A DNA stretch of 64,000 bases from IMG/VR virus record IMGVR_UViG_3300009149_000012, positions 84,882 to 148,881 of that record. One strand, given 5' to 3'. The notes below the pieces were generated by a model. That model ran no database searches, had not been told where the DNA came from, and worked only from the letters and a program-made list of their open reading frames with translations. The DNA is from a virus. The translations under genes and the position numbers were made by a program. Positions 39,530 through 53,522 of the stretch are shown here, in pieces (within the stretch, counting starts at the first letter, position 1; every line of letters starts with the position of its first letter).

Positions 39530-39533
39530 TTGT

Positions 39534-39609: not shown

Positions 39610-39615
39610 ATTCAG

Positions 39616-39686
39616 CGCCCCCGGCAGGACTCGAACCCGCACCGAACCAGATAGAAGCTGGCTTGCCGTCCATCGGCGTCAGGGGC
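39616..39686 (-). tRNA. tRNA-Arg(TCT)
   Basis: Loop CT-TCT-AT. Confidence 0.8.
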
Positions 39687-39944
39687 TTATTTCAGCAGGT
39701 CGGTAGCCTTGATGGGCTTACCCTTCTCGGTCTCGACCAACTCGAACTCGACCACTTCCCAAGATGCAGGGATCTTGGCGGGCCGGACAACCGAACCTCG
39801 GTACCCTCTAAGGTGAAGCTTGAAGTGGGTTTTCACACCGCACAACCGATCCCAGGACTTGCCAATTTCGGTGAAGTGGGGGTTGTAGCCACCGGATGAG
39901 AAGAGCCCGGTTTTCGTGTCCCGAACCTTGAAGATGGTCTTCAT
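39687..39944 (-). CDS. Hypothetical protein
   Basis: MKTIFKVRD..TGLFS.GG. Confidence 0.6.
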   Translation of the reverse strand: MKTIFKVRDTKTGLFSSGGYNPHFTEIGKSWDRLCGVKTHFKLHLRGYRGSVVRPAKIPASWEVVEFELVETEKGKPIKATDLLK

Positions 39945-39963
39945 GTAGGGGACTACACTGAAT

Positions 39964-40039
39964 TGGAAGCACGGGTGGGAATCGAACCCACGAATACCTG
40001 TTTTGCAAACAGGGCCCTTTGCCATTTGGGTACCGTGCC
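39964..40039 (-). tRNA. tRNA-Cys(GCA)
   Basis: U73, CCA. Confidence 0.9.
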
Positions 40040-40061
40040 AAGTTTTCATCTATGAAACGGG

Positions 40062-40892: not shown

Positions 40893-41352
40893 TCCAAAAC
40901 CACGTCGAAACGGGTCCTCGCTTGAACACGAGGCGGAAGCCTTGTGTCTCGTTCAGGTGCACGATGGAAGGATCCGACTTGCTTCCCGAACCCGTCAGGA
41001 TGCTGCGAAAGTCCTCTTGGAGTCTCGCTCGAAGGGCCCTGCCGTAGCCTTTGCCCCGGTGCTCGGGATGGACCGCCGTGGCGCTGATCGCAACCTCTGG
41101 ATCGAGAGCCTTGATGACGGCAAAGTTCTCGTCCTTTCGCCACAAAAGCAATGGTCTATGGTTGACCCGGCTCGTGGCTACGATGCTGCCGTTATCAAAA
41201 ACCCCGTAGGATGTGTATATCTTGGCAGAGAAGGGTTGACGACTACAAACCCGGGTACCGAAAACGAAAGCCTCTAGAACTCGGGCTTCGTACTTGTCAC
41301 TTGGCTCTTGAAGTTGGTGAACGCTATTCAGGGTATCTCTCAGCAAGTCCAC
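40846..41352 (-). CDS. GNAT acetyltransferase-like protein
   Basis: AVHPEHRGKGYGRAL; start uncertain. Confidence 0.55.
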   Translation of the reverse strand: MDLLRDTLNSVHQLQEPSDKYEARVLEAFVFGTRVCSRQPFSAKIYTSYGVFDNGSIVATSRVNHRPLLLWRKDENFAVIKALDPEVAISATAVHPEHRGKGYGRALRARLQEDFRSILTGSGSKSDPSIVHLNETQGFRLVFKRGPVSTWFWTRSCGNVEMSAGAER

Positions 41353-41656
41353 GCCTCACCATCTCCTCATTGACGTCGATGGTCTTTACACCGTCGTCAA
41401 CGTAGAGGGTGCCAATCCACCGACCATACTTACCAGTTTTCGTGGTTTTAACCGTGATCTGACCCTCTGCGAGAAGGTCTGTGATGACCGCCTTGGCAAC
41501 GAGCCCGGCTTCACGTTCAGAGCCACGAATCTCCGGGGTGTCTATCCCTCGAAGCCGAAAGGATTGGACCGTCGTGATGTGGAAGCCCAGATCGACTTTG
41601 AGGTAGACGGTGTCGCCATCGACGACGCGCACCAACTCGGCCTTGTATTCGTACAT
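41324..41656 (-). CDS. Thermonuclease (SNase-like)
   Basis: RVVDGDT, RL.GIDTPE, GKYGR, NEEMV..GLA. Confidence 0.9.
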   Translation of the reverse strand: MYEYKAELVRVVDGDTVYLKVDLGFHITTVQSFRLRGIDTPEIRGSEREAGLVAKAVITDLLAEGQITVKTTKTGKYGRWIGTLYVDDGVKTIDVNEEMVRRGLAERYPE

Positions 41657-41683
41657 GCCCTAAGCCTTGGCACAAGATGATTT

Positions 41684-41758
41684 TGGTGGACCAGATGGGT
41701 GTCGAACCCACAATAGACGGCTTGTAAAACCGCTGCCTTACCGTTTGGCTACCGGTCC
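41684..41758 (-). tRNA. tRNA-Val(TAC)
   Basis: Cloverleaf, CCA. Confidence 0.9.
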
Positions 41759-41825
41759 AAATTGATGGCCGGGCCCTATTACGGGCCTCTTCATAGCGGC
41801 TCCGCAAAGCAGAGCACGCAGCCTG

Positions 41826-41897
41826 AGCGGACGACGAGAATCGAACTCGCAACCGTCTGGATGGGAACCAGATGCGCTACCGTTGCGCCACATCCGC
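41826..41897 (-). tRNA. tRNA-Gly(CCC)
   Basis: Cloverleaf. Confidence 0.9.
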
Positions 41898-41899
41898 AA

Positions 41900-41960
41900 T
41901 AGTTGGCGTACTCTTTCGAGCGTAGGGGCAGTGTGTAGCGACGCCAGTATCCCTACCTTT
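41900..41960 (-). ncRNA. Pseudoknotted tRNA 3' trailer element (C)
   Basis: Crossing helices GTAGGG/CCCTAC and TGGCGT/ACGCCA plus GAAA hairpin. Confidence 0.45.
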
Positions 41961-41963
41961 CGG

Positions 41964-42046
41964 AGCGGACGACCGGGATCGAACCGGCCTGTGCTTTCGC
42001 ACGCCAGGGTGGAAACCTGGTGCCCCGCCATTGAGGCTTCGTCCGC
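41964..42046 (-). tRNA. tRNA-Gly(TCC) with long V-arm
   Basis: Loop TT-TCC-AC; V-arm GTGC-GAAA-GCAC. Confidence 0.85.
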
Positions 42047-42049
42047 AAC

Positions 42050-42209
42050 AGATGGGTTGTAGGGGATCTAATCCTACTTCCCACCAGGTCTTTGACTCAT
42101 CTTCCCCTCGTGCTGGTGATACATGAGCCTTCCCCTTCCATGGCACGAACCAGGTTGAGGCAAGTGCAGCCGTGCTTAATGGCACGCGACATGACGGCGA
42201 CAGCCGCCC
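42050..42209 (-). ncRNA. Candidate spacer ncRNA (D)
   Basis: 160-nt non-coding spacer; 3' hairpin resembling 16S 790 loop. Confidence 0.4.
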
Positions 42210-42283
42210 TGGTGGAGTTGGGGGGAATCGAACCCCCATCCGAGGCTTGCAAAGCCCCTGTACTCCCGTTGTACTACAACCCC
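42210..42283 (-). tRNA. tRNA-Ala(TGC)
   Basis: G3:U70, CCA. Confidence 0.9.
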
Positions 42284-42285
42284 AA

Positions 42286-42549
42286 TCATGATTTTCTATA
42301 CACCGCCCGAAGCACCCCCGCTTTCTCGCGAGGATGGTCGTCGATGATTTGGTCGGCTAGGCTCTCCATGAGCCGATTGACCGACGTCAGAGCCTTCTCA
42401 GCGGGCTCTTGCATCCCAAGCTTGGCATTGTAGTGGTCATCAACGATCACCAGAATGCTGAAAATCTCATCACGAACCGCCCGGAGTCGTACTCCAAGCG
42501 CCTCGTGCTGGATCATCTCAAGTTTTGGTTTCTTTACCGAGCCTGACAT
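42286..42549 (-). CDS. Hypothetical protein
   Basis: GGAG RBS before MSGSVKK. Confidence 0.5.
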   Translation of the reverse strand: MSGSVKKPKLEMIQHEALGVRLRAVRDEIFSILVIVDDHYNAKLGMQEPAEKALTSVNRLMESLADQIIDDHPREKAGVLRAVYRKS

Positions 42550-43303
42550 CGCTCCACTCCACCGGTTTGACATTGGCAAACCGCCTGTCCAAATCAACAG
42601 CGATTTCCGCAGCGTATCGCCGTGCTTGCTGGTACCTCTTGCGCTCCTCGTGCGTGTCGTCTGAAGGGGTCGCTCGGTTGCGGTACATGAGCGCCGCCAT
42701 GTAGGCCGCTGCCACCCAGTCTGAACGAGCATCGTCGGGCACCAAGCACAGGTTCGAATGTTGGTCACTCAAGGGGTAGAAGAACCGGGGTTCCCCCTTG
42801 TCCTCGATAGGCCCAATCGGAAGAGCTTCGTTCTCGGCCTCGACCTTCTCGAAGACGTCCCGGATCTCTTTGGGGAACTTGCTCGTGTCCGTTCGGAAGT
42901 GCTTGCCAGGGTCAGGCTCCTGATTTGTTCGGATGATCGCCCCGTCAAGCCACTCGTACCCATTGCCAATGGTGAAGAAAAGCTGGCCGTCCGCATCCGC
43001 AATCGTCCGGAAGAGAGTCTTGTACTCACGGAACATGGTCTCAAGGGTCGCCTCATAGCTCGTGGGACCATCCTTGAGGTACATCTCGACCCAAGCCAAA
43101 CCGGCCTGCATGGATTCTTCCATGGTTGGGCGAGCCCCAAGGTTGATCCCAACCTCATTTTTGGTGCCGACCTTGTTGACCCAGACCTTCACACTCCACT
43201 CGGGCTCGTCACCGTAAGGCCACACCCCAATGAAGAATCTTTCATGGACCGTCGTTGCGTAGCCGTCATCCCAACGGTCCCATTTGTGTCCGAGCTTTTC
43301 CAT
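42518..43303 (-). CDS. Hypothetical protein
   Basis: 261-aa ORF after GTGTA motif. Confidence 0.7.
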   Translation of the reverse strand: MEKLGHKWDRWDDGYATTVHERFFIGVWPYGDEPEWSVKVWVNKVGTKNEVGINLGARPTMEESMQAGLAWVEMYLKDGPTSYEATLETMFREYKTLFRTIADADGQLFFTIGNGYEWLDGAIIRTNQEPDPGKHFRTDTSKFPKEIRDVFEKVEAENEALPIGPIEDKGEPRFFYPLSDQHSNLCLVPDDARSDWVAAAYMAALMYRNRATPSDDTHEERKRYQQARRYAAEIAVDLDRRFANVKPVEWSDVRLGKETKT

Positions 43304-43354
43304 GAGGTATCCTACACGAGTTTAATATGAGGCCTTCAAGCACAGGAGATCATC

Positions 43355-43792
43355 ATGGACCCGAAAGACCGTCGTTGGAAAACATCCCGTACCGCCATGC
43401 TTGCTGATAGCCACCCCGTTGGCAAAGCGGTCTTGGAAGCCGCCGAAAAGGATATGCACCAGAAGTATCCCGACGCCGGCTTTGAAGGACATGAGGACGA
43501 GTCCAAAGAATCACGCGATGATGGTGCCATGTACCAAGCGTGGTTCGAGGGCGGATTCGAACGAGCCGAAGATGTTGGTGAGGATCTCGACAAGCTCATC
43601 AAACGGATCGGGAAGATCGAGCCCAAGCGGCTAAGCCGCTGGATCCCGGCTGCACGAGAACTGCAAACCGCATATGTCCAGGCTCAAAAGGCTCTTCGGG
43701 AAGCCAAAGGCGCCGTAGACGGCTTGGAGATGGCCTATCGTGGTGGACAAGATGGCATCCAAACCTTCCTGGAATCCACCGAAGACGATTAG
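43355..43792 (+). CDS. Hypothetical protein
   Basis: AGGAG RBS. Confidence 0.7.
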   Translation: MDPKDRRWKTSRTAMLADSHPVGKAVLEAAEKDMHQKYPDAGFEGHEDESKESRDDGAMYQAWFEGGFERAEDVGEDLDKLIKRIGKIEPKRLSRWIPAARELQTAYVQAQKALREAKGAVDGLEMAYRGGQDGIQTFLESTEDD

Positions 43793-43863
43793 AGCCAACA
43801 GTGGGAGTTGAACCCACACCTCACCCATACCAAGGGCGTGCTCTGCCTCTGAGCTATGCTGGC
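43793..43863 (-). tRNA. tRNA-Thr(GGT)
   Basis: Cloverleaf. Confidence 0.9.
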
Positions 43864-43885
43864 AAGTTCTGGTACCTACACCAGA

Positions 43886-43959
43886 TGGTGGAGCCGGGGG
43901 GAATCGAACCCCCATTCTGAGACTGCCAGTCTCATGTCTTCCCGTTGGACGACGGCCCC
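43886..43959 (-). tRNA. tRNA-Ala(GGC)
   Basis: G3:U70, CCA. Confidence 0.9.
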
Positions 43960-44005
43960 ATGCAGATTCTTTTAATAGGTTGCTGTAAAGCAAAGGAACC
44001 TGGAA

Positions 44006-44473
44006 ATGCATTCGCAAGATCCTCGCTGGAAGTATGCCGACACACAACGTGAAGGCACCACCACGTTCAATTTCAAGTCCCCCTTCCCCAAGCAAAATGC
44101 ATACGATGAAGCCTACAAGGGCTGCATCAAGGCGTTTCCAGACTGGTGGCGGCAACGTGAACGGCAAGCCCGTCCCCCCGAATTCGTAAGGGAAGTTCAA
44201 AATCAACTGGGCGGGATCATCGCAGAGTATCAAAAGGCCATCGCCGAGCGCAAGCGAATGGAAAAGCAGGCTTGGGAATTGCAGAAGGCGCACATGGATA
44301 GCCTAAAGCCCTGGAACAAGGGGCTGAAGCTGGCACACGCTGATCTTGTGGACGTGGGGTGGTACTCCGTGTCGATCACAAAAGGTGCCAGGGACGCGAT
44401 CATCGAAACCATCAAACATCTGGAGGAAGCCATCGAGGGCATCGAAGCGTTCCAGATGGACGTGACCGACTAG
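44006..44473 (+). CDS. Hypothetical coiled-coil protein
   Basis: AAGGA RBS. Confidence 0.65.
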   Translation: MHSQDPRWKYADTQREGTTTFNFKSPFPKQNAYDEAYKGCIKAFPDWWRQRERQARPPEFVREVQNQLGGIIAEYQKAIAERKRMEKQAWELQKAHMDSLKPWNKGLKLAHADLVDVGWYSVSITKGARDAIIETIKHLEEAIEGIEAFQMDVTD

Positions 44474-44505
44474 TGGAATCACGGGGATTCGAACCCCCGT
44501 GGCTC
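44474..44505 (-). pseudogene. tRNA 3' fragment / minihelix (T-arm plus acceptor strand)
   Basis: GGGG-TTCGAAT-CCCC-GTGATTCC-A. Confidence 0.5.
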
Positions 44506-44507
44506 AG

Positions 44508-44578
44508 TGGAGCTAGCGGGAATCGAACCCGCATTTCTAGCATGCGACGCTAGCGTCTTCCCGTTGGACAATAGCCCC
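44508..44578 (-). tRNA. tRNA-Ala(CGC)
   Basis: G3:U70. Confidence 0.9.
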
Positions 44579-44621
44579 AATCGAAGCCAATCACCGTTCG
44601 GCCGAACGGTGACCAGCCTCT

Positions 44622-44676
44622 AAGTTCCGCTGAGGATTTGAACCTCTTGACGCGTCTGCCTGCCAGGCACGGAACC
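44622..44676 (-). ncRNA. Mini tRNA-like RNA lacking anticodon loop (E)
   Basis: Acceptor GGTTCCG/CGGAACT, D-like arm, 3-bp stub, T-arm. Confidence 0.55.
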
Positions 44677-44679
44677 TAG

Positions 44680-44750
44680 TTGCGGGAGATGGATTCGAAC
44701 CAACCAAGGAATGGCTTATGAGGCCATCCCGGGCGCCAGCCCTTCCCGCA
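44680..44750 (-). tRNA. tRNA with CAT anticodon (Met/Ile2), minimal D-arm
   Basis: Loop CT-CAT-AA. Confidence 0.75.
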
Positions 44751-44751
44751 C

Positions 44752-44865
44752 AAGTGATCGCATTTGTTTCATGACTACAGGGGCAGTCCGCAAACCCCTC
44801 ATGTGTCACCGGGCTCTCCCCGGGCACCATACTGCGATCAAGCCCAAGCATAGCATGGGCTGAAA
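44752..44865 (-). ncRNA. Candidate spacer ncRNA (G)
   Basis: Closing helix TGATCGCA/TGCGATCA, internal hairpins. Confidence 0.45.
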
Positions 44866-44867
44866 CT

Positions 44868-45323
44868 CTAGTAATCGTAATCGGCACGGGGACTTGAATC
44901 CGTCATGCCGTACCCTCGAAGCCACCTTCGGTTCTGCTCCGTGTGGGTGAACTGGGAAAAGGTTTCCCATGCGTCCGTTCGGCCTTCGCCCGGCTTTCGC
45001 TTGGGTAGGGGCTTGGCTTCCCCTGTGAGGTGGTCGTACTGCGTGGGGCCCGGGATGTGGTCCTCCGTGATCGAGAGAAGCTTCGTGGGAGGAAGCCCCG
45101 GGAAGATCGGATGCTCGTAGATACGCATGCCGTAGCCACCGAACATCTTGCTCGGGAACATCTGCGTCAGGAGTCGATGCGTTTTGATGACCTTGAGCAC
45201 CCGGTCGAAGTCAAGCTGGGGAAGCTCCCCCTCGGGTTTCCAATCAAGCGAACAGTTGTCGCCATGCTTGGGCCAAAGTCGAGCATGAAGCTCCCGCATC
45301 CATTCTAAGTCAGTTTCTTCCAT
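44868..45323 (-). CDS. Hypothetical protein
   Basis: 151-aa ORF; ATG overlaps upstream CCA. Confidence 0.65.
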   Translation of the reverse strand: MEETDLEWMRELHARLWPKHGDNCSLDWKPEGELPQLDFDRVLKVIKTHRLLTQMFPSKMFGGYGMRIYEHPIFPGLPPTKLLSITEDHIPGPTQYDHLTGEAKPLPKRKPGEGRTDAWETFSQFTHTEQNRRWLRGYGMTDSSPRADYDY

Positions 45324-45449
45324 GGTGGAGTCGGCCGGAATCGAACCGGCACCTGGGAGTTAGCGCCCCCTGCTCTACCTGCACCAGGGCCCCCGGGGAA
45401 CAGCGCTATTCTTGCCGGGTAGCATCCGATGAACTTGAGCTACAACCCC
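45323..45449 (-). ncRNA. Ala-type tRNA-like RNA with about 54-nt D-loop insertion (H)
   Basis: G3:U70, A73, CCA, intact D- and T-stems. Confidence 0.75.
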
Positions 45450-45452
45450 TTC

Positions 45453-45603
45453 TGGTGGAGTAGACGGGATTCGAACCCGCCGTGAAGCTACGGTATGCCT
45501 AAAGGCTGTTCTCCAGCCATCCAGAGCCACTGGGTCGCGAACACCAGCTTGATCCCTGGTCCTAGTTTTCGTTTGCAGCAAGGCGACCATGCCTTCCTAC
45601 CCC
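45453..45603 (-). ncRNA. Ala-type tRNA-like RNA with about 83-nt anticodon-loop insertion (I)
   Basis: GGGGTAG/CTACTCC, A73, CCA, T-arm. Confidence 0.75.
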
Positions 45604-45617
45604 ATGTTGTGTTCCTT

Positions 45618-45644
45618 CTAAGGGGTCTACACCGACAGGATCAA
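45618..45644 (-). promoter_or_regulatory. TTGATY-N16-CTTAG promoter motif
   Basis: Repeat motif, upstream of elements I and H. Confidence 0.7.
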
Positions 45645-45654
45645 CCACAATCGG

Positions 45655-45727
45655 AGCCCCCACTGGGATTCGAACCCAGAGCCTTCGGTGTAGGAAACCG
45701 CTGCACGATCCGTCGTGCTATAGGGAC
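45655..45727 (-). tRNA. tRNA-Arg(CCT)
   Basis: Loop TT-CCT-AC. Confidence 0.85.
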
Positions 45728-46144
45728 CTAGTCTTCCAGGATGCGCTGCCACAGGGTAGGGCGAACGATGGTGGGAGGGGCCGAAGCAAACAACGGGTCG
45801 AACCACTCGGTACCCGTCTTGGTCCAGATCTCAGCTAGCTTCCTACGACCCTCAGCGTGGCTGAAAAGCCCAGAAGTCCGAATCTTCTGCTTGACGTCGT
45901 CAGGGACCCGCTTCTCGTCATCAGTGAAGAACTCCTGGACTGCCGAAATAGGGCAACCCACCCACACCTGATCTTCGCCTTCGGTGGTTACCTCAAAGCC
46001 GATCTGCCTTCGAAACGGGATGTCGGCTGCGTAAACCCGATGCGCGCTGGGAAGCGACAGAACGCCCCGGATGCCCGCAAGCATGGCGAACAAGGACTTG
46101 TAGACCAGTTCATTGGAATAGGTGATGTCGTTGACGTCAGGCAT
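45728..46144 (-). CDS. Hypothetical protein with C-terminal TLWQRI
   Basis: ATG 10 nt after GTGTA. Confidence 0.65.
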   Translation of the reverse strand: MPDVNDITYSNELVYKSLFAMLAGIRGVLSLPSAHRVYAADIPFRRQIGFEVTTEGEDQVWVGCPISAVQEFFTDDEKRVPDDVKQKIRTSGLFSHAEGRRKLAEIWTKTGTEWFDPLFASAPPTIVRPTLWQRILED

Positions 46145-46159
46145 CTGTTGAGTCTACAC

Positions 46160-46294
46160 ATTGCAGGTATCGGACTGCACTCCAAAATTGAGGGGATTGC
46201 CCCCAGCCCCCTACAGTTAGCCGCTGAACACGGTCCGGCTATAGGGAGGTGGCGGGGGCGCTGTTCCATTCCAGGGATCCCCTTCCCTGGCAGC
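46160..46294 (-). ncRNA. Candidate spacer ncRNA (J)
   Basis: Hairpins; several 9-11 nt complementarities to other elements. Confidence 0.45.
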
Positions 46295-46297
46295 TAG

Positions 46298-46369
46298 GGT
46301 GACCGACGGGATTCGAACCCGCACATACCTGGACCACAACCAGGCGCTCTACCATTGAGCAACGGCCAC
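46298..46369 (-). tRNA. tRNA-His(GTG)
   Basis: C73; G-1 not encoded. Confidence 0.9.
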
Positions 46370-46371
46370 AG

Positions 46372-46452
46372 CGGAGAGTGTAGGATTCGAACCCGGCCTT
46401 TCGGCACCCGGTTTTCAAGACCGGTGTGGGGACCTTTCCCACCTCACTCTCC
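46372..46452 (-). tRNA. tRNA-Ser(TGA), 8/4-type
   Basis: 8-bp acceptor, V-arm. Confidence 0.8.
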
Positions 46453-46460
46453 AAACGCAG

Positions 46461-46532
46461 CGGAGACGACGGGAATCGAACCCGCACAGCCCACATCGAC
46501 AGTGTGGTGCCCTTCCATTAGGCTACGCCTCC
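46461..46532 (-). tRNA. tRNA-Asp(GTC)
   Basis: Cloverleaf. Confidence 0.9.
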
Positions 46533-46551
46533 AAATTCCTATGATTCTTGA

Positions 46552-46795
46552 ACGGTCTGGGTGGGATTCGAACCCACACCTCCGAGTTTACCACAGCATA
46601 CGCTTCTCGGCATTCTACCGTTAAACCACCTCTCGAACTGCCCTCATAGGCGTCACCACCATCCTCTTCCCACCCTGATCCGATGTCTCCAAGCATGACC
46701 TGTCCAGGCCCTTCCCCTGGCTCACGGTTTTTATAGCGTTAGCTGTGGTTATCATGCGAGTGAACACCGGGGGCTTTCCGCATCCGATGGCTACT
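46552..46795 (-). ncRNA. ncRNA with 3' tRNA-like domain and 19-nt anticodon loop (K)
   Basis: D-arm, CCGAG/CTCGG stem, T-arm; loop pairs upstream. Confidence 0.55.
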
Positions 46796-46872
46796 TGGTG
46801 GGGAAAGGCGGAATCGAACCGCCGACGACGGAGATCTTCAGTCTCCCGCTCTTCCAACTGAGCTACTTCCCC
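46796..46872 (-). tRNA. tRNA-Phe(GAA)
   Basis: Cloverleaf, CCA. Confidence 0.9.
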
Positions 46873-46873
46873 A

Positions 46874-46976
46874 TGGACTCCGGGGTTGGGATCGAACCAG
46901 ACATCCCCCGGTGTGCGCAGCGCCCTTCCAACGACGCCCGCCTACACCAGATGCTCTTCCATTGAGCTACCCGAAT
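46874..46976 (-). ncRNA. tRNA-like RNA with extended anticodon arm (L)
   Basis: D-arm, about 45-nt hairpin, T-loop, CCA. Confidence 0.6.
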
Positions 46977-46979
46977 ACT

Positions 46980-47232
46980 TGTGGGTGCTACCATGCTCTG
47001 GGCACGCACCCGGCACCCTGGTCCCTGCACGGCTGGGGGCTTCGGCTTATCGGGCAGCCTACACCATCACTGTTTTTGAGTCTGTCGACACCCCGAAGTG
47101 AGAACTGGACGTTCCTGCAAGGCGATTCGAACGCCATCCAGATCGCCCCCCTTTGCAGGGGACGTCGCCGCCAGGTACCATGCGACGACGACGCTGGTCC
47201 CTTCAGGATGGTACCACCCTGAAGTGCAGAAA
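46980..47232 (-). ncRNA. Candidate spacer ncRNA with T-arm module (M)
   Basis: GACGT.CCTGCAA/TTGCAGG.ACGTC enclosing GGCG-TTCGAAT-CGCC. Confidence 0.5.
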
Positions 47233-47235
47233 CGG

Positions 47236-47307
47236 TCGGGGTAGTGGGGATCGAACCCACCAACGCCTGGACCCAAACCAGGTGGCCCTCCCTGAGCCCT
47301 CACCCCG
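47236..47307 (-). tRNA. tRNA-Pro(TGG)
   Basis: Cloverleaf. Confidence 0.85.
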
Positions 47308-47309
47308 TA

Positions 47310-47675
47310 ATGTCACGACGAAAACTGCAAGACAACAGCCTTTCGGCTCCGGAGAGGCTACCAATTTCTCCACGTATCAGCCATCTCAGCGAACCGAGAG
47401 GACCGACCCGACGGGACTTGAACCCGCACGCCCTTTCGGGCACCGGTTTGCGATTGTAGTCCGACATGCATTCGTGACAAGTAGTAGGTCTCGACGAAAA
47501 TCGACGAAAGTCTTGGTTATGGCCGGCACATTGGGGTCTGGCTCTTTCGAGTAACCCCCGTTCGCCCCGCACCCGTCTGGTCAGAGACCTGAAAGGTGCC
47601 ATCACGCTACCTCAGTCGCCTGAAGATCGCTACCTTAGGACCATTGTAGTATTGTACTTCCGTCCGCATTCGAAA
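47310..47675 (-). ncRNA. About 365-nt candidate ncRNA with Leu-like V/T arms and 23S-like segment (N)
   Basis: GCCC-GAAA-GGGC plus T-arm; GGTCCTAAGGTAGCGA. Confidence 0.55.
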
Positions 47676-47679
47676 CCAG

Positions 47680-47764
47680 TGCGTAGAGCGGGGCTCGAAC
47701 CCGCACGCCCACTATGGAGCACGAGCATCTCAAGCTCGCGTGTCTGCCATTCCACCACCTACGC
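47680..47764 (-). tRNA. tRNA-Leu(GAG)
   Basis: V-arm. Confidence 0.9.
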
Positions 47765-47791
47765 ATAAAATATTTGTACGCTTTGATAAGC

Positions 47792-48148
47792 ATGAACAAG
47801 TTTGCAACTCCACGAGAACTCCTCGTTGAACTTCGCAGTCTGATTGCCACCATCCAAAGTTATGGTGAAGACGGCAAACCTGACCGTCATATGGTCGCCG
47901 AAAAACTTGATGGCTTGGCGAATCGGATGGCCGGGGATCTTCGTCCAAAAAAGATGGCCCCCATCAGCTACACGTACGACCACCCAAGTCTCGGCAAACT
48001 TCTCGTGAACTGGGTAGGCCGAGATGGATGGGTTGTAATTGACGCATCACACAAGGTTTTGGTTGCAAAACTGCTGCCTGGTTTGCAACCCATGGACAAC
48101 CCACGAGCCGCAGACATCCTTCAAAGAGCCGTGGACAAGGCTCTCTAG
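47792..48148 (+). CDS. Hypothetical protein
   Basis: Start MNKFATP after TTTGATA. Confidence 0.65.
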   Translation: MNKFATPRELLVELRSLIATIQSYGEDGKPDRHMVAEKLDGLANRMAGDLRPKKMAPISYTYDHPSLGKLLVNWVGRDGWVVIDASHKVLVAKLLPGLQPMDNPRAADILQRAVDKAL

Positions 48149-48221
48149 AGCGGGTGACGAGAATCGAACTCGCCGGGGACTGCGATGGCAACGCAGCGCT
48201 CCACCTTGGAGCATCACCCGC
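48149..48221 (-). tRNA. tRNA-Gly(GCC)
   Basis: Loop TT-GCC-AT, 6-bp D-stem. Confidence 0.85.
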
Positions 48222-48227
48222 AATTTG

Positions 48228-48464
48228 TCGGTCTGACGGGACTCGAACCCGCATAACCACTCCGTACCTGTTAGGAAAACGCGCTTCCCTACAGAACCCT
48301 CTCGAACCCTGTCCGGTGCATCCGCAAACCCGGCACACGCTTGCTGGTTCTCCCTACCCGAGCATCACCCTGAAGGGTTTCCCCAGTTCACGTCGGAGCG
48401 TCAACCTTCCGATTGACCACGTTAACCGTTTTTCGTGGTGCGTACCCATTTTCGCCACAGACCG
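48228..48464 (-). ncRNA. tRNA-shell RNA with about 170-nt insertion in anticodon arm (O)
   Basis: CGGTCTG/CAGACCG, D-arm, CCAC/GTGG, T-arm, A73. Confidence 0.75.
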
Positions 48465-48473
48465 AGAAATTGA

Positions 48474-48580
48474 AGCTTCGAAGACCCAGGCCCGACGGGC
48501 GTTCATGAGAAGGTGCTTCGGCCGAAGTCCTAACTCCCGATGGGAGAGCCTTGCTACTCTCTTTCCTGAATCTTCGAAGC
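48474..48580 (-). ncRNA. Candidate spacer ncRNA (P)
   Basis: 16-bp terminal helix GCTTCGAAGATTCAGG/CCTGGGTCTTCGAAGC. Confidence 0.55.
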
Positions 48581-48582
48581 AG

Positions 48583-48667
48583 TGCCATCGGTGGGAGTTG
48601 AACCCACACGCCCACTATGGAGCACCAGATTCTGAGTCTGGCGTGTCTGCCGTTTCACCACGATGGC
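48583..48667 (-). tRNA. tRNA-Leu(CAG)
   Basis: V-arm. Confidence 0.9.
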
Positions 48668-48673
48668 AATCAG

Positions 48674-48748
48674 TCGGGACGGCCGGATTCGAACCGGCGA
48701 TCTCCTGTCCCCCAGACAGGCGCTTTTGCCAGGCTAAGCTACACCCCG
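48674..48748 (-). tRNA. tRNA-Pro(GGG)
   Basis: Cloverleaf. Confidence 0.9.
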
Positions 48749-48753
48749 TAGTC

Positions 48754-48825
48754 CCAACGAGCCAGCCGACATTTCCGCACGAGACGGGATGACAGAACCG
48801 GCCAGGTCCTGAACTGACTCGTTGG
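48754..48825 (-). ncRNA. Candidate spacer ncRNA (Q)
   Basis: 12-bp terminal helix CCAACGAGTCAG/CTGGCTCGTTGG. Confidence 0.45.
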
Positions 48826-48902
48826 TGGTGGGCGCACCGAGAATTGAACTCGAATTTCTCGGATATCAGCCGAGCGTGGAGAAACCACCCTACTATACGC
48901 CC
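48826..48902 (-). tRNA. tRNA-Ile(GAT)
   Basis: CCA. Confidence 0.85.
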
Positions 48903-48914
48903 ATTCAGTCTCAG

Positions 48915-48986
48915 TGGTCAGAGCGGGAATTGAACCCGCATTGCTGGATTTTCAATCCAGAGCACTTCCAATTGTACTATCTGACC
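48915..48986 (-). tRNA. tRNA-Phe(GAA), second copy
   Basis: Overlaps HNH stop. Confidence 0.85.
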
Positions 48987-49447
48987 TGGTCTGACTTGTA
49001 ACCCCAAGTAGCCAATTGTGTATGGCAATTAGGGCAAACAAATCTCAAGTTCTCACGACGACAGTCCAAAGAATCGCCATTCACGTGGTCGATTTGAAGC
49101 GTCAAAGAAGCTCCCTCCCACATTGGGGGCAACCCGCATCGTGAGCAGATATGGGGCACCCCTGATTCGAGAAGGGCTCTACGCAGCCTGTGTGTGTCCT
49201 CCCGTCGAGCCTTCCGCTTCACCAAGATCAACTCTGGTGGCTTCTTATGCGACGGCGGTCGCCCAACACCAGTTCGATGCCCAACAAAATGGGAGGTATC
49301 AATCCCAAAAACACGAAGTTTTGACCGAATCAAAGATGATGAGGCACCCGAATAGGTCTTGAACCCCATCCGACGCATCATTTCTGACACCGAAGTCGAA
49401 ACGGCAGCCACCTCTTCAAGCAGTTCCTTTGTGTACTTCCGCTTCAT
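48977..49447 (-). CDS. HNH homing endonuclease
   Basis: CSRCG, IDHVNG, ENLRFVCPNCH. Confidence 0.9.
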   Translation of the reverse strand: MKRKYTKELLEEVAAVSTSVSEMMRRMGFKTYSGASSSLIRSKLRVFGIDTSHFVGHRTGVGRPPSHKKPPELILVKRKARREDTHRLRRALLESGVPHICSRCGLPPMWEGASLTLQIDHVNGDSLDCRRENLRFVCPNCHTQLATWGYKSDQVR

Positions 49448-49486
49448 GGGACAAGGTACCTAGCATTGACGCAGTACCTTGTCCAG

Positions 49487-49561
49487 CGGTCCTGACGAGA
49501 TTTGAACTCGCGATCTTCACCGTGACAGGGTGACGGGGACTCCAGGCTCCCCTACAGGACC
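49487..49561 (-). tRNA. tRNA-Asp(GTC), second copy
   Basis: Cloverleaf. Confidence 0.9.
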
Positions 49562-49567
49562 AAATTT

Positions 49568-49637
49568 GCTGGGAAGAGGCTGGAAGTGAACCAGCCCACC
49601 GCACGCTGATCATACGTGTGTGCTCAACCGAGCTTCC
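49568..49637 (-). pseudogene. Degenerate tRNA-like element (GAT loop)
   Basis: D-arm, anticodon arm, T-loop TTCACTT; poor acceptor. Confidence 0.4.
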
Positions 49638-49667
49638 TGGCAGAGGTGAAAGGAATCGAACCTTCCC
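49638..49667 (-). pseudogene. 3' remnant of disrupted tRNA-Trp
   Basis: T-arm + CACCTCT-G-CCA pairs with AGGGGTG at 50239. Confidence 0.75.
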
Positions 49668-49671
49668 TTAG

Positions 49672-49742
49672 CGAGCCAGGCAGGAATCGAACCTGCTACC
49701 AGCGGTTTTGGAGACCGCCGAGCTGCCTCAGCATTCTGACCC
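49672..49742 (-). tRNA. tRNA-Trp(CCA)
   Basis: Loop CT-CCA-AA, G73; overlaps HNH 3' end. Confidence 0.85.
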
Positions 49743-50159
49743 TCGTGTCCATCCATTTTCCTTCGCTGTCTTGCGACGATGGCAGTTGGCACAACGTATC
49801 TCACACTTCTCAAGCTCTTTCTGTACGGCTTCCCATGTGCGACCGGAAGTCAGCATCTTGGCGATCCCCGAAGCCTTCCGGCCACGCACATGGTCGGCAT
49901 CGAGTACCACCGGGTCTGATTCACCGCAATCCACACACTTCTGGGTAGCCAGCCACACCCGGTACGCTTTTTTGACCTTGCGCTTGTTCGCAAGAGCACG
50001 GTCTTTGTATGGTTGCGGATGGTTGCGGTAGTGCTCCTTGCGGTACAACCGAAGACAATCAGGACAGGCCGATTGCCTCCAGCCTTTCGCTTGGTTCTTA
50101 AAGGCGTAGGTTTCTTCGGGAAGATCGTCCCCACACCGAGAGCAATGCTTCATACCCAT
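49728..50159 (-). CDS. HNH endonuclease with N-terminal Zn finger
   Basis: CSRC..CPDC, CVDCG, DH, CANCHR. Confidence 0.85.
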   Translation of the reverse strand: MGMKHCSRCGDDLPEETYAFKNQAKGWRQSACPDCLRLYRKEHYRNHPQPYKDRALANKRKVKKAYRVWLATQKCVDCGESDPVVLDADHVRGRKASGIAKMLTSGRTWEAVQKELEKCEIRCANCHRRKTAKENGWTRGSEC

Positions 50160-50196
50160 GAGCGAAGTGTAGCACATGGTACTCCAAAGGCAAGAC

Positions 50197-50239
50197 TCGG
50201 TTTTGGAGACCAATTCGCCGCCTTGGAACATGCACCCCT
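50197..50239 (-). pseudogene. 5' remnant of disrupted tRNA-Trp(CCA)
   Basis: AGGGGTG through TTGGT-CTCCAAA-ACCGA. Confidence 0.75.
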
Positions 50240-50245
50240 AAATAG

Positions 50246-50317
50246 TGACTCGCACGGGAATTGAACCCGTCTTTGCAGAATGAAAACCTGCCGTCCTTGC
50301 CGATAGACGAGCGAGCC
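50246..50317 (-). tRNA. tRNA-Glu(TTC)
   Basis: Cloverleaf. Confidence 0.9.
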
Positions 50318-50321
50318 TTGG

Positions 50322-50547
50322 TTGGTGTTGGTCTCAGCGGACCCGAGAGCGGGGGCTGGGGAATTTGGAATTTGTCAACGACCATGGCACTCCCTGCTTC
50401 CCAAGCGAGGAGATTAGAGCACGTACGACCCGAGTAATAGGTACCTTTCGGCATTGCTGTTTTAACCAGACATCGCATCGTAAGGTTGGGAGCCCTACTC
50501 ACAAAGTCGTGCCCAAGTACCATGGTAGAGGCCCACGACCAACACCA
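50322..50547 (-). ncRNA. Candidate spacer ncRNA (S)
   Basis: 11-bp terminal helix TGGTGTTGGTC/GACCAACACCA; inner ACCATGGTACT/AGTGCCATGGT. Confidence 0.6.
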
Positions 50548-50548
50548 G

Positions 50549-50631
50549 CGGAAACAGGAGGAGTCGAACCCCACACCTTGCGGTGCACTTCGGTTAGCAG
50601 CCGAGCCTTGGGCCATCCAAGTGCAGTTTCC
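50549..50631 (-). tRNA. tRNA-Ser(GCT), 8/4-type
   Basis: V-arm, G73. Confidence 0.85.
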
Positions 50632-50688
50632 AATGAGCCAGCGGGCGATCCAGATCGGGGGGCTTGAGAGGACCCACCCACGGCTCGG

Positions 50689-50762
50689 CGTTCCCAAGGG
50701 GAATCGAACCCCTGTTTTCAGATTGAGAATCTGACGTCCTTGCCGGACTAGACGATGGGAAC
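50689..50762 (-). tRNA. tRNA-Glu(CTC)
   Basis: Cloverleaf. Confidence 0.9.
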
Positions 50763-50814
50763 AATCGGTGATGGGCAAGCCGTTGAGCAAGCCCGCCACC
50801 TTCACAATTGCGGG

Positions 50815-50887
50815 AGCTACCGACAGGATTCGAACCTGCTGACTCCGGTTTACAAAACCGGTGCACGACCTATCGTGCTTCGGTAGC
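50815..50887 (-). tRNA. tRNA-Thr(TGT)
   Basis: Cloverleaf. Confidence 0.9.
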
Positions 50888-50889
50888 AC

Positions 50890-51243
50890 AGGGCCCACAA
50901 GTTGGGCCCCTTCGAACTTCTTACCCTTGACTTAGTGTCAGGAAAACAATAGGTTGCCACTCAGACGGACCTTGGAAGTGCAAATTCTAGGAGACGCCCA
51001 AGTGGCGTCCGGTTTGCGACACGTCCGAGAACTTCGGTGACTCCGAAGAGTTTTCGCCCCTGTCAGGTCATGACGGGAACACCGATACCCAAACACGCGA
51101 CCCCCGGCAGGAGCGTTCTCGTAGGGCACATTCCACGCACTTTCACATGCGGGTCGACACCCGGTACTTGCCCCCAAACTTAGGGCCGGCAAAGAGTGAC
51201 GAGACGTAATGTTGTTGGATTGTAGTCTCGTCGGCATCCGGCC
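50890..51243 (-). ncRNA. About 350-nt candidate ncRNA (V)
   Basis: Many hairpins, no credible ORF; shares 10-11-mers with N. Confidence 0.5.
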
Positions 51244-51246
51244 TAG

Positions 51247-51319
51247 AGCCGCCAGGGGGAATCGAACCCACCTTACACTCGCTTACGAAACGAGGACTCG
51301 ACCATCGAGAATTAGCGGC
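51247..51319 (-). tRNA. tRNA-Thr(CGT)
   Basis: Loop TT-CGT-AA. Confidence 0.8.
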
Positions 51320-51409
51320 AATGCCTATTCGGTTGTCAAGGGTCAGGGGGGCGACGCCCCCATCGTCTCATGGTATACACCGAATGTTCAGTGTTCGGCC
51401 AGACTTTCT

Positions 51410-51784
51410 TCAGACCCAACGAGAATCGTTGTTGGCAGGCTTCGTGCAAGCGAGGTGGCGGCAGACGTCGATGCCCTTGAAGGTCACGAAGTCATCGTTG
51501 GGAAGCCCTTCACGCTTGACCATGCGGCGGGTAGCGCTGCGCATGTACTCTTGCGCGAGCTTGTTGACGTCATTGTCGAAGTATTCTGTCATGACTTCGT
51601 CATCGGCCAAGTTGGCGTAGACGTGGACGACGTGCTTGTAGCCGGTGAGCATGTTGCCCTTGCGGCCCCCATACACGGGGATCTGAAAGTGGTACCTCAG
51701 CCCGATGACTTCTTCGCACTCGGCGATGGTCAACTGGGGGGAGGTGGGCTCTTTGGGGGCGGGGAAGTTGATTTCGGTCTGCAT
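51410..51784 (-). CDS. Hypothetical protein
   Basis: ATG 7 nt after CTTAG. Confidence 0.7.
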   Translation of the reverse strand: MQTEINFPAPKEPTSPQLTIAECEEVIGLRYHFQIPVYGGRKGNMLTGYKHVVHVYANLADDEVMTEYFDNDVNKLAQEYMRSATRRMVKREGLPNDDFVTFKGIDVCRHLACTKPANNDSRWV

Positions 51785-51791
51785 GGACCCT

Positions 51792-51818
51792 CTAAGGAAC
51801 GAGGGGCGAAGCGATCAA
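51792..51818 (-). promoter_or_regulatory. TTGATY-N16-CTTAG promoter motif
   Basis: Repeat motif. Confidence 0.7.
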
Positions 51819-52222
51819 CCAAGATTCGCAGGTTCTTTGGGCAAGCCCTTCGAATCACGAAGGACCCGGATGGTCGCTGCCATGTCCGCAATCGCTTCCT
51901 CGGAAGAGTCTCGGATGTGCGACCAGTCGAACAACAAGGGAGAGTCCGGGTTCTTGCCGAAGCCATCCGCCATGCTGCGGATGATCTGCTTGTCCTCATG
52001 GGTCAGAGCGTCTTGGTCCGAACCCGTGGGGGCCAGATGGCCCACCACGAGACACCAGTCACGGCTCACGAAGTCGTAACCGACGTAGACGTAGCCAAGG
52101 TCTTCCATGTCCTTGACGACCTTGTTGGCCGCATGACCATCGTCAAGGTCGCCATCACGAAGGCGGGAGACGCCTTCACCAAGGGTGCGGAGAACTTCTT
52201 TGGAGAGATTGAGCGTTGTCAT
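51815..52222 (-). CDS. Hypothetical protein
   Basis: ATG 7 nt after CTTAG. Confidence 0.7.
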   Translation of the reverse strand: MTTLNLSKEVLRTLGEGVSRLRDGDLDDGHAANKVVKDMEDLGYVYVGYDFVSRDWCLVVGHLAPTGSDQDALTHEDKQIIRSMADGFGKNPDSPLLFDWSHIRDSSEEAIADMAATIRVLRDSKGLPKEPANLG

Positions 52223-52229
52223 GCACCCC

Positions 52230-52256
52230 CTAAGAGATGGGGGCAGGACCAATCAA
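52230..52256 (-). promoter_or_regulatory. TTGATY-N16-CTTAG promoter motif
   Basis: Repeat motif. Confidence 0.7.
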
Positions 52257-52462
52257 CCGACTTGGTCACCGTAAAGCGTTTGCTGGGTCACGATCTCGAC
52301 CGTCGTGTGAACAGAAAACTGCTTTTTGGCAGCTTCCTCATCCGACAGCACTTCGTCATCCTTGCAGACGACCGTGACGCCAAGCCCATTGAGAAGGTGA
52401 TACAGATGCCAAGCCAGCTTCGACTTGCCTTCACCAGTGGTGCCTTCGATGATGACTCTCAT
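52253..52462 (-). CDS. Small P-loop-containing protein
   Basis: IIEGTTGEGKS. Confidence 0.6.
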   Translation of the reverse strand: MRVIIEGTTGEGKSKLAWHLYHLLNGLGVTVVCKDDEVLSDEEAAKKQFSVHTTVEIVTQQTLYGDQVG

Positions 52463-52556
52463 GCCACCATCTACACCAGTGGAGCTTGGATGCCTCGAAC
52501 ATCCCGCCAAGGGCTCTCTTGTCCCCCACGCTGTCGCCACCCGACAAACCCCATAG

Positions 52557-52629
52557 AGGCGGTGGTGAGAATTGAACTCACGTAGGGCAAATTAACAATT
52601 TGCTGCCTGGACCACTAGGCTACACCGCC
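52557..52629 (-). tRNA. tRNA-Asn(GTT)
   Basis: Cloverleaf. Confidence 0.9.
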
Positions 52630-52631
52630 AA

Positions 52632-52808
52632 ACTTTGCCGGGGGGCGAACCCCCCGGCGCACAAACTCGGGAGAGGACTAACCCCTTGCTGCCACCTGAC
52701 CCGCTGCCGGCTCCATGCCGGTCGTTGTGAGGTGCCCGGCCCTTATGAGGCCGATGAGGCGTTTCCAAATCCCGTCAAGTTGTCATGGATCAGCGGGGCT
52801 CGTGCCCC
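52632..52808 (-). ncRNA. Candidate spacer ncRNA (X)
   Basis: CCCGCTG/CAGCGGG and TCCATG/CATGGA helices. Confidence 0.45.
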
Positions 52809-52811
52809 TAG

Positions 52812-52882
52812 ATGGAGTGGAGAGAATCGAACTCTCATTGACTGATTCAGAGTCAGGTGTCCTACCGTTGGACGACACTCCA
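52812..52882 (-). tRNA. tRNA-Gln(CTG)
   Basis: Cloverleaf. Confidence 0.9.
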
Positions 52883-52960
52883 ATTGCTCGGCCCTCACGG
52901 GGCCTTTTCAAATTCCAAGTTTCATAAGCCTGCGTTTCATAATTTCCAAGTGATTCTCAG

Positions 52961-53031
52961 TGGGTCGTCGGGGAATCGAACCCCGCCCTGCCGGGTAAGA
53001 GCCGGATGCTCCGCCTTGGAGCTAACAACCC
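52961..53031 (-). tRNA. tRNA-Lys(CTT)
   Basis: Cloverleaf. Confidence 0.9.
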
Positions 53032-53034
53032 ATT

Positions 53035-53110
53035 TGGTAGGACCGAAGGGACTCGAACCCTCACCGAACAGATTAAAAGTCTGTCACGCTTCCAATTACG
53101 CCACGGTCCC
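53035..53110 (-). tRNA. tRNA-Lys(TTT)
   Basis: CCA. Confidence 0.9.
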
Positions 53111-53153: not shown

Positions 53154-53238
53154 TGGGCCGTGAAGGAATCGAACCTCATAGTCATTAAGACGGGAGGGTT
53201 ACAACCTCCGGGCGGTCCCAGCCACCTATTCACGACCC
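53154..53238 (-). tRNA. tRNA-Tyr(GTA)
   Basis: V-arm; first gene of array. Confidence 0.85.
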
Positions 53239-53252
53239 AAAACCTATGCCCC

Positions 53253-53291
53253 AAAAACGACAAGCCGCCGTGGTTTCCCAGGGCGGCTTCG
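53253..53291 (-). terminator. Intrinsic terminator (attenuator) upstream of tRNA array
   Basis: AAGCCGCC/GGCGGCTT hairpin followed by GTCGTTTTT. Confidence 0.75.
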
Positions 53292-53314
53292 GTTTCTAGA
53301 GTACCTTTGCCGCC

Positions 53315-53479
53315 CTACGTACCCACCTCCGGATTGGCGATCATGATGGAGGTGGGAAGCTGGGAATACGCGCGATCATGCTTTGTCAAGGCTTCAGCGC
53401 TAAAGCTTCCCTGGACACACCACGACGCACAAGCCGTTTGGCTTGAGGTGCGTTTGGTTTCTTGTGTCCTGGTACTCAT
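53315..53479 (-). CDS. Putative 54-aa leader peptide of tRNA-operon attenuator
   Basis: AGGA RBS; all 20 amino acids; stop overlaps antiterminator strand. Confidence 0.65.
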   Translation of the reverse strand: MSTRTQETKRTSSQTACASWCVQGSFSAEALTKHDRAYSQLPTSIMIANPEVGT

Positions 53480-53494
53480 GGTGTCCTGTGAATG

Positions 53495-53522
53495 ATGTTA
53501 CACCTGTCAGACGTGCGGTCAA
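53495..53522 (-). promoter_or_regulatory. Sigma70-like promoter of leader/tRNA operon
   Basis: TTGACC-N16-TAACAT, includes GGTGTA. Confidence 0.65.

Follow-up and report, generated by a model that had tools for sequence, protein, structure and literature searches.

How do huge phages govern the large arrays of transfer RNA (tRNA) genes which they carry? Both the regulation of these arrays and the reason for the complete tRNA sets of the largest phages have not been known so far, and a locus in the virus record IMGVR_UViG_3300009149_000012 suggests an answer at least to the first part of the question. The DNA analyzed here, referred to as the window, is the terminal 64 kb of this 148.9-kb IMG/VR record (positions 84,882 to 148,881), which is a fragment of a huge phage, as judged from its CheckV completeness of 31%. 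Nearly all genes of the window lie on the minus strand, and a compact cassette, all features of which are also on that strand, occupies the upstream edge of a tRNA array. A preliminary description of the locus had proposed that this cassette is an attenuator which senses the depletion of any tRNA and thereby gates the array. We consider it likely, at a probability of roughly 0.7, that the cassette represents a ribosome-mediated transcription attenuator heading the array, whose leader peptide holds every amino acid and mostly a single copy of each rare one. This interpretation draws on the conservation, peptide composition and base-pair covariation of 33 distinct sequences, namely the window, three assembly contigs and 29 further IMG/VR loci. 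Their common cassette comprises, in this order, a promoter, a short open reading frame (ORF), a hairpin, a GGCGG box joined to the stop codon, a terminator hairpin capped by a GAAA loop, and the tRNA array.

Conservation in relatives had been chosen beforehand as a test on which the proposal was to stand or fall, and the outcome is strongly in its favor: the leader, both hairpins and the complement overlapping the stop codon are kept in each of the 33 sequences. These relatives were reached via neighboring genes. A homologue of the 240-residue protein encoded upstream of the cassette, with 62% identity, is found on an assembly contig of 26.9 kb (L002) which carries the whole cassette, and because an extra gene for a 149-residue protein separates this homologue from the cassette, the latter should be regarded as belonging to the array and not to the upstream gene. 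The divergently transcribed anchor protein (Table 1) belongs to a large family of more than 200 homologues on huge-phage contigs of 0.1 Mb up to 620 kb, and two contigs with anchor homologues of 59-61% identity (L004 and L005) also carry the cassette. Scanning IMG/VR with the anchor alignment yielded 44 loci, and searches with an nhmmer profile and then with a covariance model revealed exactly one cassette in each of the 33 distinct sequences, always on the strand opposite to the anchor gene. The covariance model did not detect the cassette in 10 further related loci, eight of which are without a tRNA array near the anchor gene. No match was obtained from a distant DNA search of the element against phage records, from protein-pattern scans of viral contigs with either the leader peptide or the upstream 240-residue protein, or from exact-pattern scans of viral and metagenome contigs for the terminator and the tRNA-Tyr. 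In LR745208.1, the top phage-record match of the neighboring methylase, neither the element nor any tRNA is present within 12 kb of the methylase gene.

The leader ORF of the window has the attributes originally assigned to it, that is, 54 codons which include all 20 amino acids and 36 different codons. Its codons had further been described as mostly A/U-ending and thus unlike those of the GC3-rich genes; this is only mildly true, the G+C content of third codon positions (GC3) being 0.62 for the leader and 0.62-0.82 for the long genes. An ORF of 54 codons has a chance of 2-6% to contain all 20 amino acids, as estimated for the window alone; such coverage is not rare in a single ORF and becomes significant only via the relatives. 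In these, the leader frame runs without interruption through at least 50 codons up to the conserved stop (33 of 33 sequences including the window), whereas stop codons interrupt the other two frames in 28-31 of the 33. A purely non-coding RNA is ruled out by this uniquely open frame. The start position is likewise conserved, with ATG or GTG as start codon and an N-terminus of the type M-S/T-S/T, and most elements contain a Shine-Dalgarno (SD)-like motif, which in most relatives is a purine-rich GGAG, AGGA or GAGA sequence 5-12 nucleotides (nt) ahead of the start. Between the window and L002, a WCVQGS motif is kept across four synonymous changes, and an insertion or deletion of 12 codons stays in frame.

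While the peptides vary widely in sequence (47-78 residues with a median of 55, and a median pairwise identity of 25%), their composition is held constant. All 20 amino acids, with the initiator uncounted, occur in 28 of the 33 leaders and 19 in the remaining five, compared to an expectation of 0.95 complete leaders in 33 from the pooled composition of the family. Trp is present exactly once in 32 leaders, Tyr in 31, Met in 29, His in 26 and Asp in 25, and only five zero counts of an amino acid are observed versus about 100 expected from a Poisson distribution. Simulated drift with 75% of the sites substituted retained all 20 amino acids in only 4.6% of cases. The result is also independent of the choice of start codon, since the last 50 codons alone are complete in 22 of 33 leaders and contain at least 19 amino acids in 30. 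The positions of the rare residues shift within the peptide, as seen in a WCV motif that has lost its Trp and is accompanied by a Trp in PWYPTS instead. Codon diversity is similarly raised: the peptides as they stand would be expected to use 36.0 distinct codons, but the leaders use 39.8 (summed z = 10.4). Full amino acid coverage and high codon coverage are therefore selected properties of this family; we see no reason for such a pattern at the RNA level, and it can only be read by a ribosome.

The candidate signals for expression of the leader, a sigma-70-like promoter of the form TTGACC-N16-TAACAT and a ribosome-binding site, are located in the window where they had been reported (Table 1). 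Both promoter hexamers and the GGTG preceding the -10 element are identical in L002 and nearly identical in another relative (L046), and a TTGAC-type/TAnnnT pair is found within 110 nt upstream of the leader start in 16 of the 33 elements. The leader of L002 may be leaderless at the mRNA level, because it is not preceded by an SD-like motif and its ATG lies 8 nt past the -10 element.

The hairpin within the ORF (hairpin 1) and the intrinsic-terminator-like hairpin ahead of tRNA-Tyr were both recovered in the window and evolve as RNA helices. Over the 33 sequences, 89.7% of the cells are paired in hairpin 1, with compensatory changes in seven of nine pairs, and 92.8% in the terminator, with compensatory changes in 10 of 12 pairs. 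Taken jointly, the two helices reach 91.5% paired cells and 17 of 21 compensatory pairs, values attained in none of 500 shuffles, while slid controls stay at about 50%; RNAalifold also supports the helices. The predicted strength of the terminator hairpin ranges from -14 to -33 kcal/mol across the elements. It is followed by a tail with the family consensus GUCGUUUYAGGG (window and 32 relatives), in which the motif as such is kept and not simply a run of U residues. The 3' arm of hairpin 1 is at the same time an SD-like GGAGG sequence, located 8 nt before the stop codon.

The feature which distinguishes the cassette from a gene followed by a terminator is a second, competing pairing. As had been pointed out for the window, the stop codon lies inside an element (UAGGGCGGC, the core of region 2) complementary to the 5' arm of the terminator (GCCGCCCUG, within region 3), with one G-U pair in the duplex. 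In the window itself, 99.0-99.5% of the sequences obtained by dinucleotide shuffling of the 40-100 nt upstream yield a weaker complement, corresponding to a chance of about 1%. The duplex of region 2 with the arm amounts to -21.3 kcal/mol in the window and to -15 kcal/mol or better in all 33 sequences, and its median of -21.8 kcal/mol is close to that of the terminator hairpin (-22.3 kcal/mol). Since region 2 occurs in registers of two, three or four G residues, counting its pairs column by column failed with both MAFFT and model-based alignments and was replaced by alignment-free duplex tests and a run-length test. Region 2 and arm pair better within their own element than across elements (-21.7 versus -18.3 kcal/mol; 0 of 20,000 permutations reach the observed value), and the length of the G run in region 2 equals that of the C run in the arm in 27 of the 33 sequences as counted by script, or 29 after correction of three mis-parses by eye, compared to 13.4 expected. 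Individual cases illustrate the same covariation. In the window and L002, the third C of the arm is mismatched in the terminator and therefore serves the antiterminator pairing there; in L046, an A of region 2 matches a U of the arm, for which the terminator uses a G-U pair instead; and in L004, both antiterminator strands are rewritten (AGGCGGUUCUUCC versus GGAAGACCGCCU) with the pairing retained. Thus, the complementarity first seen in the window is present in all relatives and covaries with the terminator arm.

The location of region 2 ties this choice of pairing to translation. Counted from the first stop-codon base, it extends from 0 to +14 (medians; 5' ends from -14 to +4, 3' ends from -2 to +17), and in all 33 sequences it falls within the footprint of a terminating ribosome. 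For the window alone, a fold of 86 nt gives the antiterminator and one of 251 nt the terminator. In minimum-free-energy folds of the nascent transcript, with the 3' arm of the terminator not yet made, the 5' arm is predicted to pair with region 2 in 33 of 33 sequences, while forbidding pairing from -15 to +15 around the stop leads to the terminator in 33 of 33. The free full-length RNA folds into the terminator in 23 cases and the antiterminator in 10, with one more scoring both, so the two folds appear close in energy. According to these models, a ribosome at the stop codon would indeed mask the antiterminator, as had been postulated.

The output of the putative switch is a complete set of tRNAs. 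The first gene behind it, coding for tRNA-Tyr, was missed by ARAGORN in the window and gave only a sub-threshold match of the tRNA-Sec type in Rfam, but ARAGORN calls its orthologue in L002 (2352-2436) and a tRNA-Tyr in 22 of 30 arrays scanned, and the D-stem changes between the window and L002 are compensatory. Together with tRNA-Tyr, the array of the window serves all 20 amino acids, and ARAGORN found no tRNA genes elsewhere in the 148.9-kb record. The array follows the cassette on the same strand in all 30 elements checked, with 5-33 tRNAs in the downstream DNA available, and begins with Tyr (when called), Lys(UUU), Lys(CUU) and then Gln or Asn; five complete arrays contain 40-47 tRNAs serving 18-20 amino acids. 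The tail is separated from tRNA-Tyr by only 14 nt in the window, counted from its last U, and by 12 nt in L002. This leaves no room for another promoter, and transcription of tRNA-Tyr must therefore pass through the hairpin.

Table 1. Features of the cassette and its surroundings in the window (positions are those of the 64-kb stretch).
Feature	Position	Strand	Remarks
Sigma-70-like promoter	53495..53522	-	-35 TTGACC, 53522-53517; 16-nt spacer ending in GGTG; -10 TAACAT, 53500-53495
Shine-Dalgarno-like AGGA	53484..53487	-	4 nt ahead of the ATG at 53479
Leader ORF	53315..53479	-	54 codons and TAG; all 20 amino acids, 36 distinct codons
Hairpin 1	53322..53356	-	9 base pairs; 5' arm CCCACCUCC, 53356-53348; 3' arm GGAGGUGGG, 53330-53322; inside the last 14 codons
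Region 2, antiterminator 5' strand	53304..53317	-	opens with TAG, 53317-53315; core UAGGGCGGC, 53317-53309
Region 3, terminator 5' arm	53278..53289	-	pairs alternatively with region 2 or region 4; contains GCCGCCCUG, 53287-53279
Terminator hairpin	53262..53289	-	stem of 8 + 3 base pairs with one C-C mismatch; GAAA loop; -19.4 kcal/mol
Tail GUCGUUUUUGG with U tract	53251..53261	-	GUCG, then five U at 53257-53253
tRNA-Tyr (GUA)	53154..53238	-	long variable arm, unusual D stem of 5 base pairs; first gene of the array, only Tyr tRNA in the window
Rest of tRNA array	31385..53110	-	43-44 tRNA genes and a transfer-messenger RNA gene (ARAGORN); ORFs interspersed
Anchor protein gene	54197-54856	+	~203 residues; divergently transcribed; better anchor for relatives than the 240-residue protein

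From these features, a course of events in the cell may be envisaged, extending from translation of the leader in vivo and its coupling to transcription up to termination at the hairpin and the physiological trigger. Transcription would start from the promoter, and the leader would be translated closely behind the polymerase, with hairpin 1 possibly acting as a pause hairpin that synchronizes polymerase and ribosome. If decoding is smooth, the ribosome would reach the TAG codon and cover the GGCGG box of region 2, and the GGAGG sequence in the 3' arm of hairpin 1 could help to keep the terminating ribosome at this position. The 5' arm of the terminator would then pair only with its 3' arm, and the GAAA-capped hairpin would stop transcription before tRNA-Tyr. 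If a ribosome stalls for want of a charged tRNA within roughly the first 40-45 codons, or if the leader is not loaded with ribosomes at all, region 2 would stay free and pair with the 5' arm as soon as this emerges, no terminator would form, and the polymerase would enter the genes for tRNA-Tyr, Lys, Lys, Gln, Asn and onwards. An untranslated leader is thus expected to be read through, because hairpin 1 does not sequester region 2. In effect, slow decoding of any amino acid would make the phage raise its own supply of tRNAs.

Somewhat less assured than the attenuator as such, though still favored by us, is the wider view that the cassette serves huge phages as a universal decoding sensor, in which a test message of about 55 codons reports a slowdown at any codon and switches on the complete tRNA set. 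The slowdown could be caused by starvation, by a mismatch with the codon usage of the host, or by tRNA-cutting defense nucleases of the host. Anticodon nucleases commonly attack the tRNAs for Tyr, Lys, Gln and Asn, and these are also the first ones encoded behind the switch; a link to such nucleases is speculative.

Several observations weigh against these proposals. The U tract is weak in most relatives, comprising 3-5 U residues which begin 3-4 nt past the stem, and the conservation of the tail as a motif hints at a second or different role, for example, in processing. Two loci (L030 and L044) have tRNA arrays near the anchor gene without a detectable cassette. The control codons are represented by one codon per rare amino acid, as opposed to the runs in classical attenuators, and in some leaders the sole codon for an amino acid is placed 2-5 codons before the stop (Asp at position -2 in three of them), where a stall should not be sensed, because a ribosome halted there still covers region 2. 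No match was found between the missing amino acid and a missing tRNA for the five leaders with 19 amino acids, the arrays of which still contain the respective tRNA. The leader of the window also looks weakly coding, with its codon usage at the 4th percentile of windows from real genes and its codon adaptation at the 9th percentile, and gene callers do not report leader ORFs, as concluded from an empty search of the protein collection with an alignment of two peptides. Finally, the switch may control only the first block of the array, since the 22 kb of the latter also hold interspersed ORFs and promoter-like sites.

The conserved tail is one argument for an alternative model, which we nevertheless consider unlikely, in which leader and tRNAs are always co-transcribed and the cassette acts as a module for RNA processing or stability. 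Hairpin and tail would then constitute a site of cleavage or 3'-end protection, and translation of the leader would alter the fold and hence processing or decay rather than termination. This would fit with a tail that is kept as a motif instead of a U run, with a U tract that is short and set back from the stem, and with the tRNA of L002 beginning so close downstream (12 nt) that RNase P must cut right alongside. On the other hand, a strong GC stem followed by U residues and preceded by an alternative pairing is the standard layout of an attenuator, and the exact placement of region 2 within the footprint of the terminating ribosome in all 33 sequences speaks for termination as well. Even if it applied, the module would remain a translation-sensing switch, differing from the attenuator only in the output step. 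A somewhat lower likelihood is assigned to a sensor of the general translation status, which would respond to ribosome availability, initiation or the coupling to polymerase instead of individual tRNAs, the full amino acid set adding little. Since the ribosome-free fold is predicted to be the antiterminator in all 33 sequences, a global loss of translation would indeed switch on the array, and the ORF upstream of whiB7 is known to respond also to ribosome-targeting drugs and many other insults (PMC10274678). However, a pure sensor of ribosome presence requires no particular composition of the peptide, and such a model does not account for the maintenance, at 25% identity, of a full amino acid set with one copy of each rare member and of a high codon diversity.

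It is yet more improbable that the leader simply encodes a small protein with an independent function, and that this gene, with a promoter of its own and a leaky terminator, precedes the array only by coincidence. Short motifs such as WCV, YPTS and NPEVG are found in the conserved ORF, but those at the C-terminus are encoded by the arms of hairpin 1 and may reflect constraints on the RNA; beyond the WCV-type motif, the sequence is barely conserved while its composition is strictly so. Moreover, the peptide matches no Pfam family and has no homologue in the protein collection, and a covarying antiterminator at the stop codon would be left unexplained. A chance ORF and a chance complement beside the plain terminator of the upstream gene could have been put forward for the window alone, given the percentages calculated above and the weak coding score of the leader. 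It is refuted by the comparative data, as all features are conserved and covary across 33 sequences, and retains practically no probability. A plain terminator of the upstream gene is also ruled out by the arrangement in L002, where the cassette has moved with the array. The ribosome-mediated attenuator hence remains the preferred interpretation of the locus.

Some further observations concern the array itself. Many relatives have 80-200 nt of unassigned sequence between the tail and tRNA-Tyr, and in L005 a gene of the Endonuclease VII family (6281-6651, minus strand), present identically in L006, is located between them. It looks like a mobile nuclease gene that has landed in the controlled unit, in which case the switch would also govern a protein gene. 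Genes for HNH and Endonuclease VII proteins occur around the array as well, and a free-standing GIY-YIG nuclease gene adjoins the anchor gene in several relatives (55306-55686, plus strand, in the window; 7603-7893 in L005). Suppressor-type tRNAs are encoded in the arrays of two relatives, one with the anticodon UUA in L004 (810-883) and two with CUA in the L056 and L057 arrays of the L043 phage, and these anticodons match the stop codons of the respective leaders (TAA in L004, TAG in L043). If expressed, they would allow ribosomes to continue past the stop codon of the leader into the terminator. Since most leaders end with TAG, this agreement may be a coincidence. Just downstream of tRNA-Asn, a conserved stretch (52431-52547, minus strand, in the window; 2840-2920 in L002) shows 92% over 25 residues in one blast frame between the two sequences, this frame differing from that of the longest local ORF. 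It could represent a small gene or a structured RNA.

On the other side of the cassette, the anchor protein contains an invariant HExxH-type motif but falls into no Pfam family; possibly, it is a small metallopeptidase that is characteristic of this group of phages. The upstream ORF of 240 codons (53553-54275, minus strand) appears in a 189-residue form in the protein collection, and its homologues have 214-215 residues; in its long form it overlaps the divergent anchor gene by 79 nt, and it probably starts later. The closest relative of the upstream protein (79% identity) is encoded on a 1.4-kb contig (L003), where it is followed not by the cassette but by a gene of opposite strand (1216-1359). 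With this gene in the place of the cassette, the neighborhood upstream of the latter is fluid.

A literature search retrieved no published description of leader-peptide control of phage tRNA genes, and the proposed attenuation by a complete-alphabet leader that governs a complete phage tRNA set appears to be new, with strong support from the sequence comparison. If the proposed mechanism is true, it would constitute a closed-loop control of tRNA supply by translation, a logic which has not been described for cellular or viral tRNA genes. The production of tRNAs would track the state of translation, with decoding of all 20 amino acids required before the array is shut off, and the arrays would be linked to codon supply and possibly to host defenses based on tRNA cleavage. 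Leader-peptide attenuation would be extended from enzymes of amino acid metabolism to tRNA genes, and the cassette would offer a small, naturally evolved reporter of how fast each amino acid is decoded. With its single Trp, Tyr and Met among about 55 residues, kept at 25% identity, the leader also offers a rare case in which a function is read from the content of a peptide and not from its sequence.

A view on the known systems shows where the cassette resembles them and where it departs. The classical leader attenuators are those of trpL, hisL, leuL, thrL and pheL and the multivalent one of ilvGMEDA. As in the phage element, a short leader ORF and a possible pause hairpin are combined with antiterminator and terminator structures that exclude each other, and the stop codon is placed such that a terminating ribosome blocks the antiterminator strand. 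However, the codons in their leaders form runs, which represent one to three amino acids, and the genes controlled are those of biosynthetic enzymes, whereas the phage leaders contain about one codon for each amino acid and precede tRNA genes, so that the control codons expected of an attenuator are present in an altered form, as a complete amino acid set without runs. The two types also differ in their predicted default, since classical leaders terminate via 1:2 pairing when untranslated, while the phage leader should be read through. T-box riboswitches (the RF00230 clan) are comparable in using a terminator/antiterminator switch to report tRNA charging and adjust what is supplied to translation, but they bind one uncharged tRNA directly, function without an ORF and control synthetase or amino acid genes; apart from tRNAs and chance matches, neither a T-box nor any other Rfam family was detected in positions 52500-54000 at E values up to 1. 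In drug-sensing leader attenuators such as that of mef/mel (PMC4335068), stalling in a leader ORF likewise blocks formation of the terminator, but stalling depends on the drug together with a specific nascent peptide, and these leaders show neither compositional completeness nor downstream tRNA genes.

The closest known system is that of whiB7 in mycobacteria and other actinobacteria, which shares with the phage cassette a promoter-proximal upstream ORF (uORF) of diverse composition, a Rho-independent terminator and a competing antiterminator; the relation is an analogy of mechanism and not one of membership. Efficient translation of the whiB7 uORF leads to termination and stalling to read-through, the composition of the uORF decides which kinds of starvation are sensed, and a single Trp codon suffices to sense starvation for Trp (PMC10274678). 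The uORF of Mycobacterium smegmatis contains 19 of the 20 amino acids, while that of M. tuberculosis lacks several (PMC10274678). The whiB7 uORF is enriched in alanine without conserving full coverage, whereas the phage leaders conserve full coverage with single copies of the rare residues. Correspondingly, no whiB7 gene follows the cassette and its leader is not of the alanine-enriched type (11% alanine, compared to 12.5% serine and 10% threonine): the output of the whiB7 system is the gene of a transcription factor, that of the phage system a set of tRNA genes.

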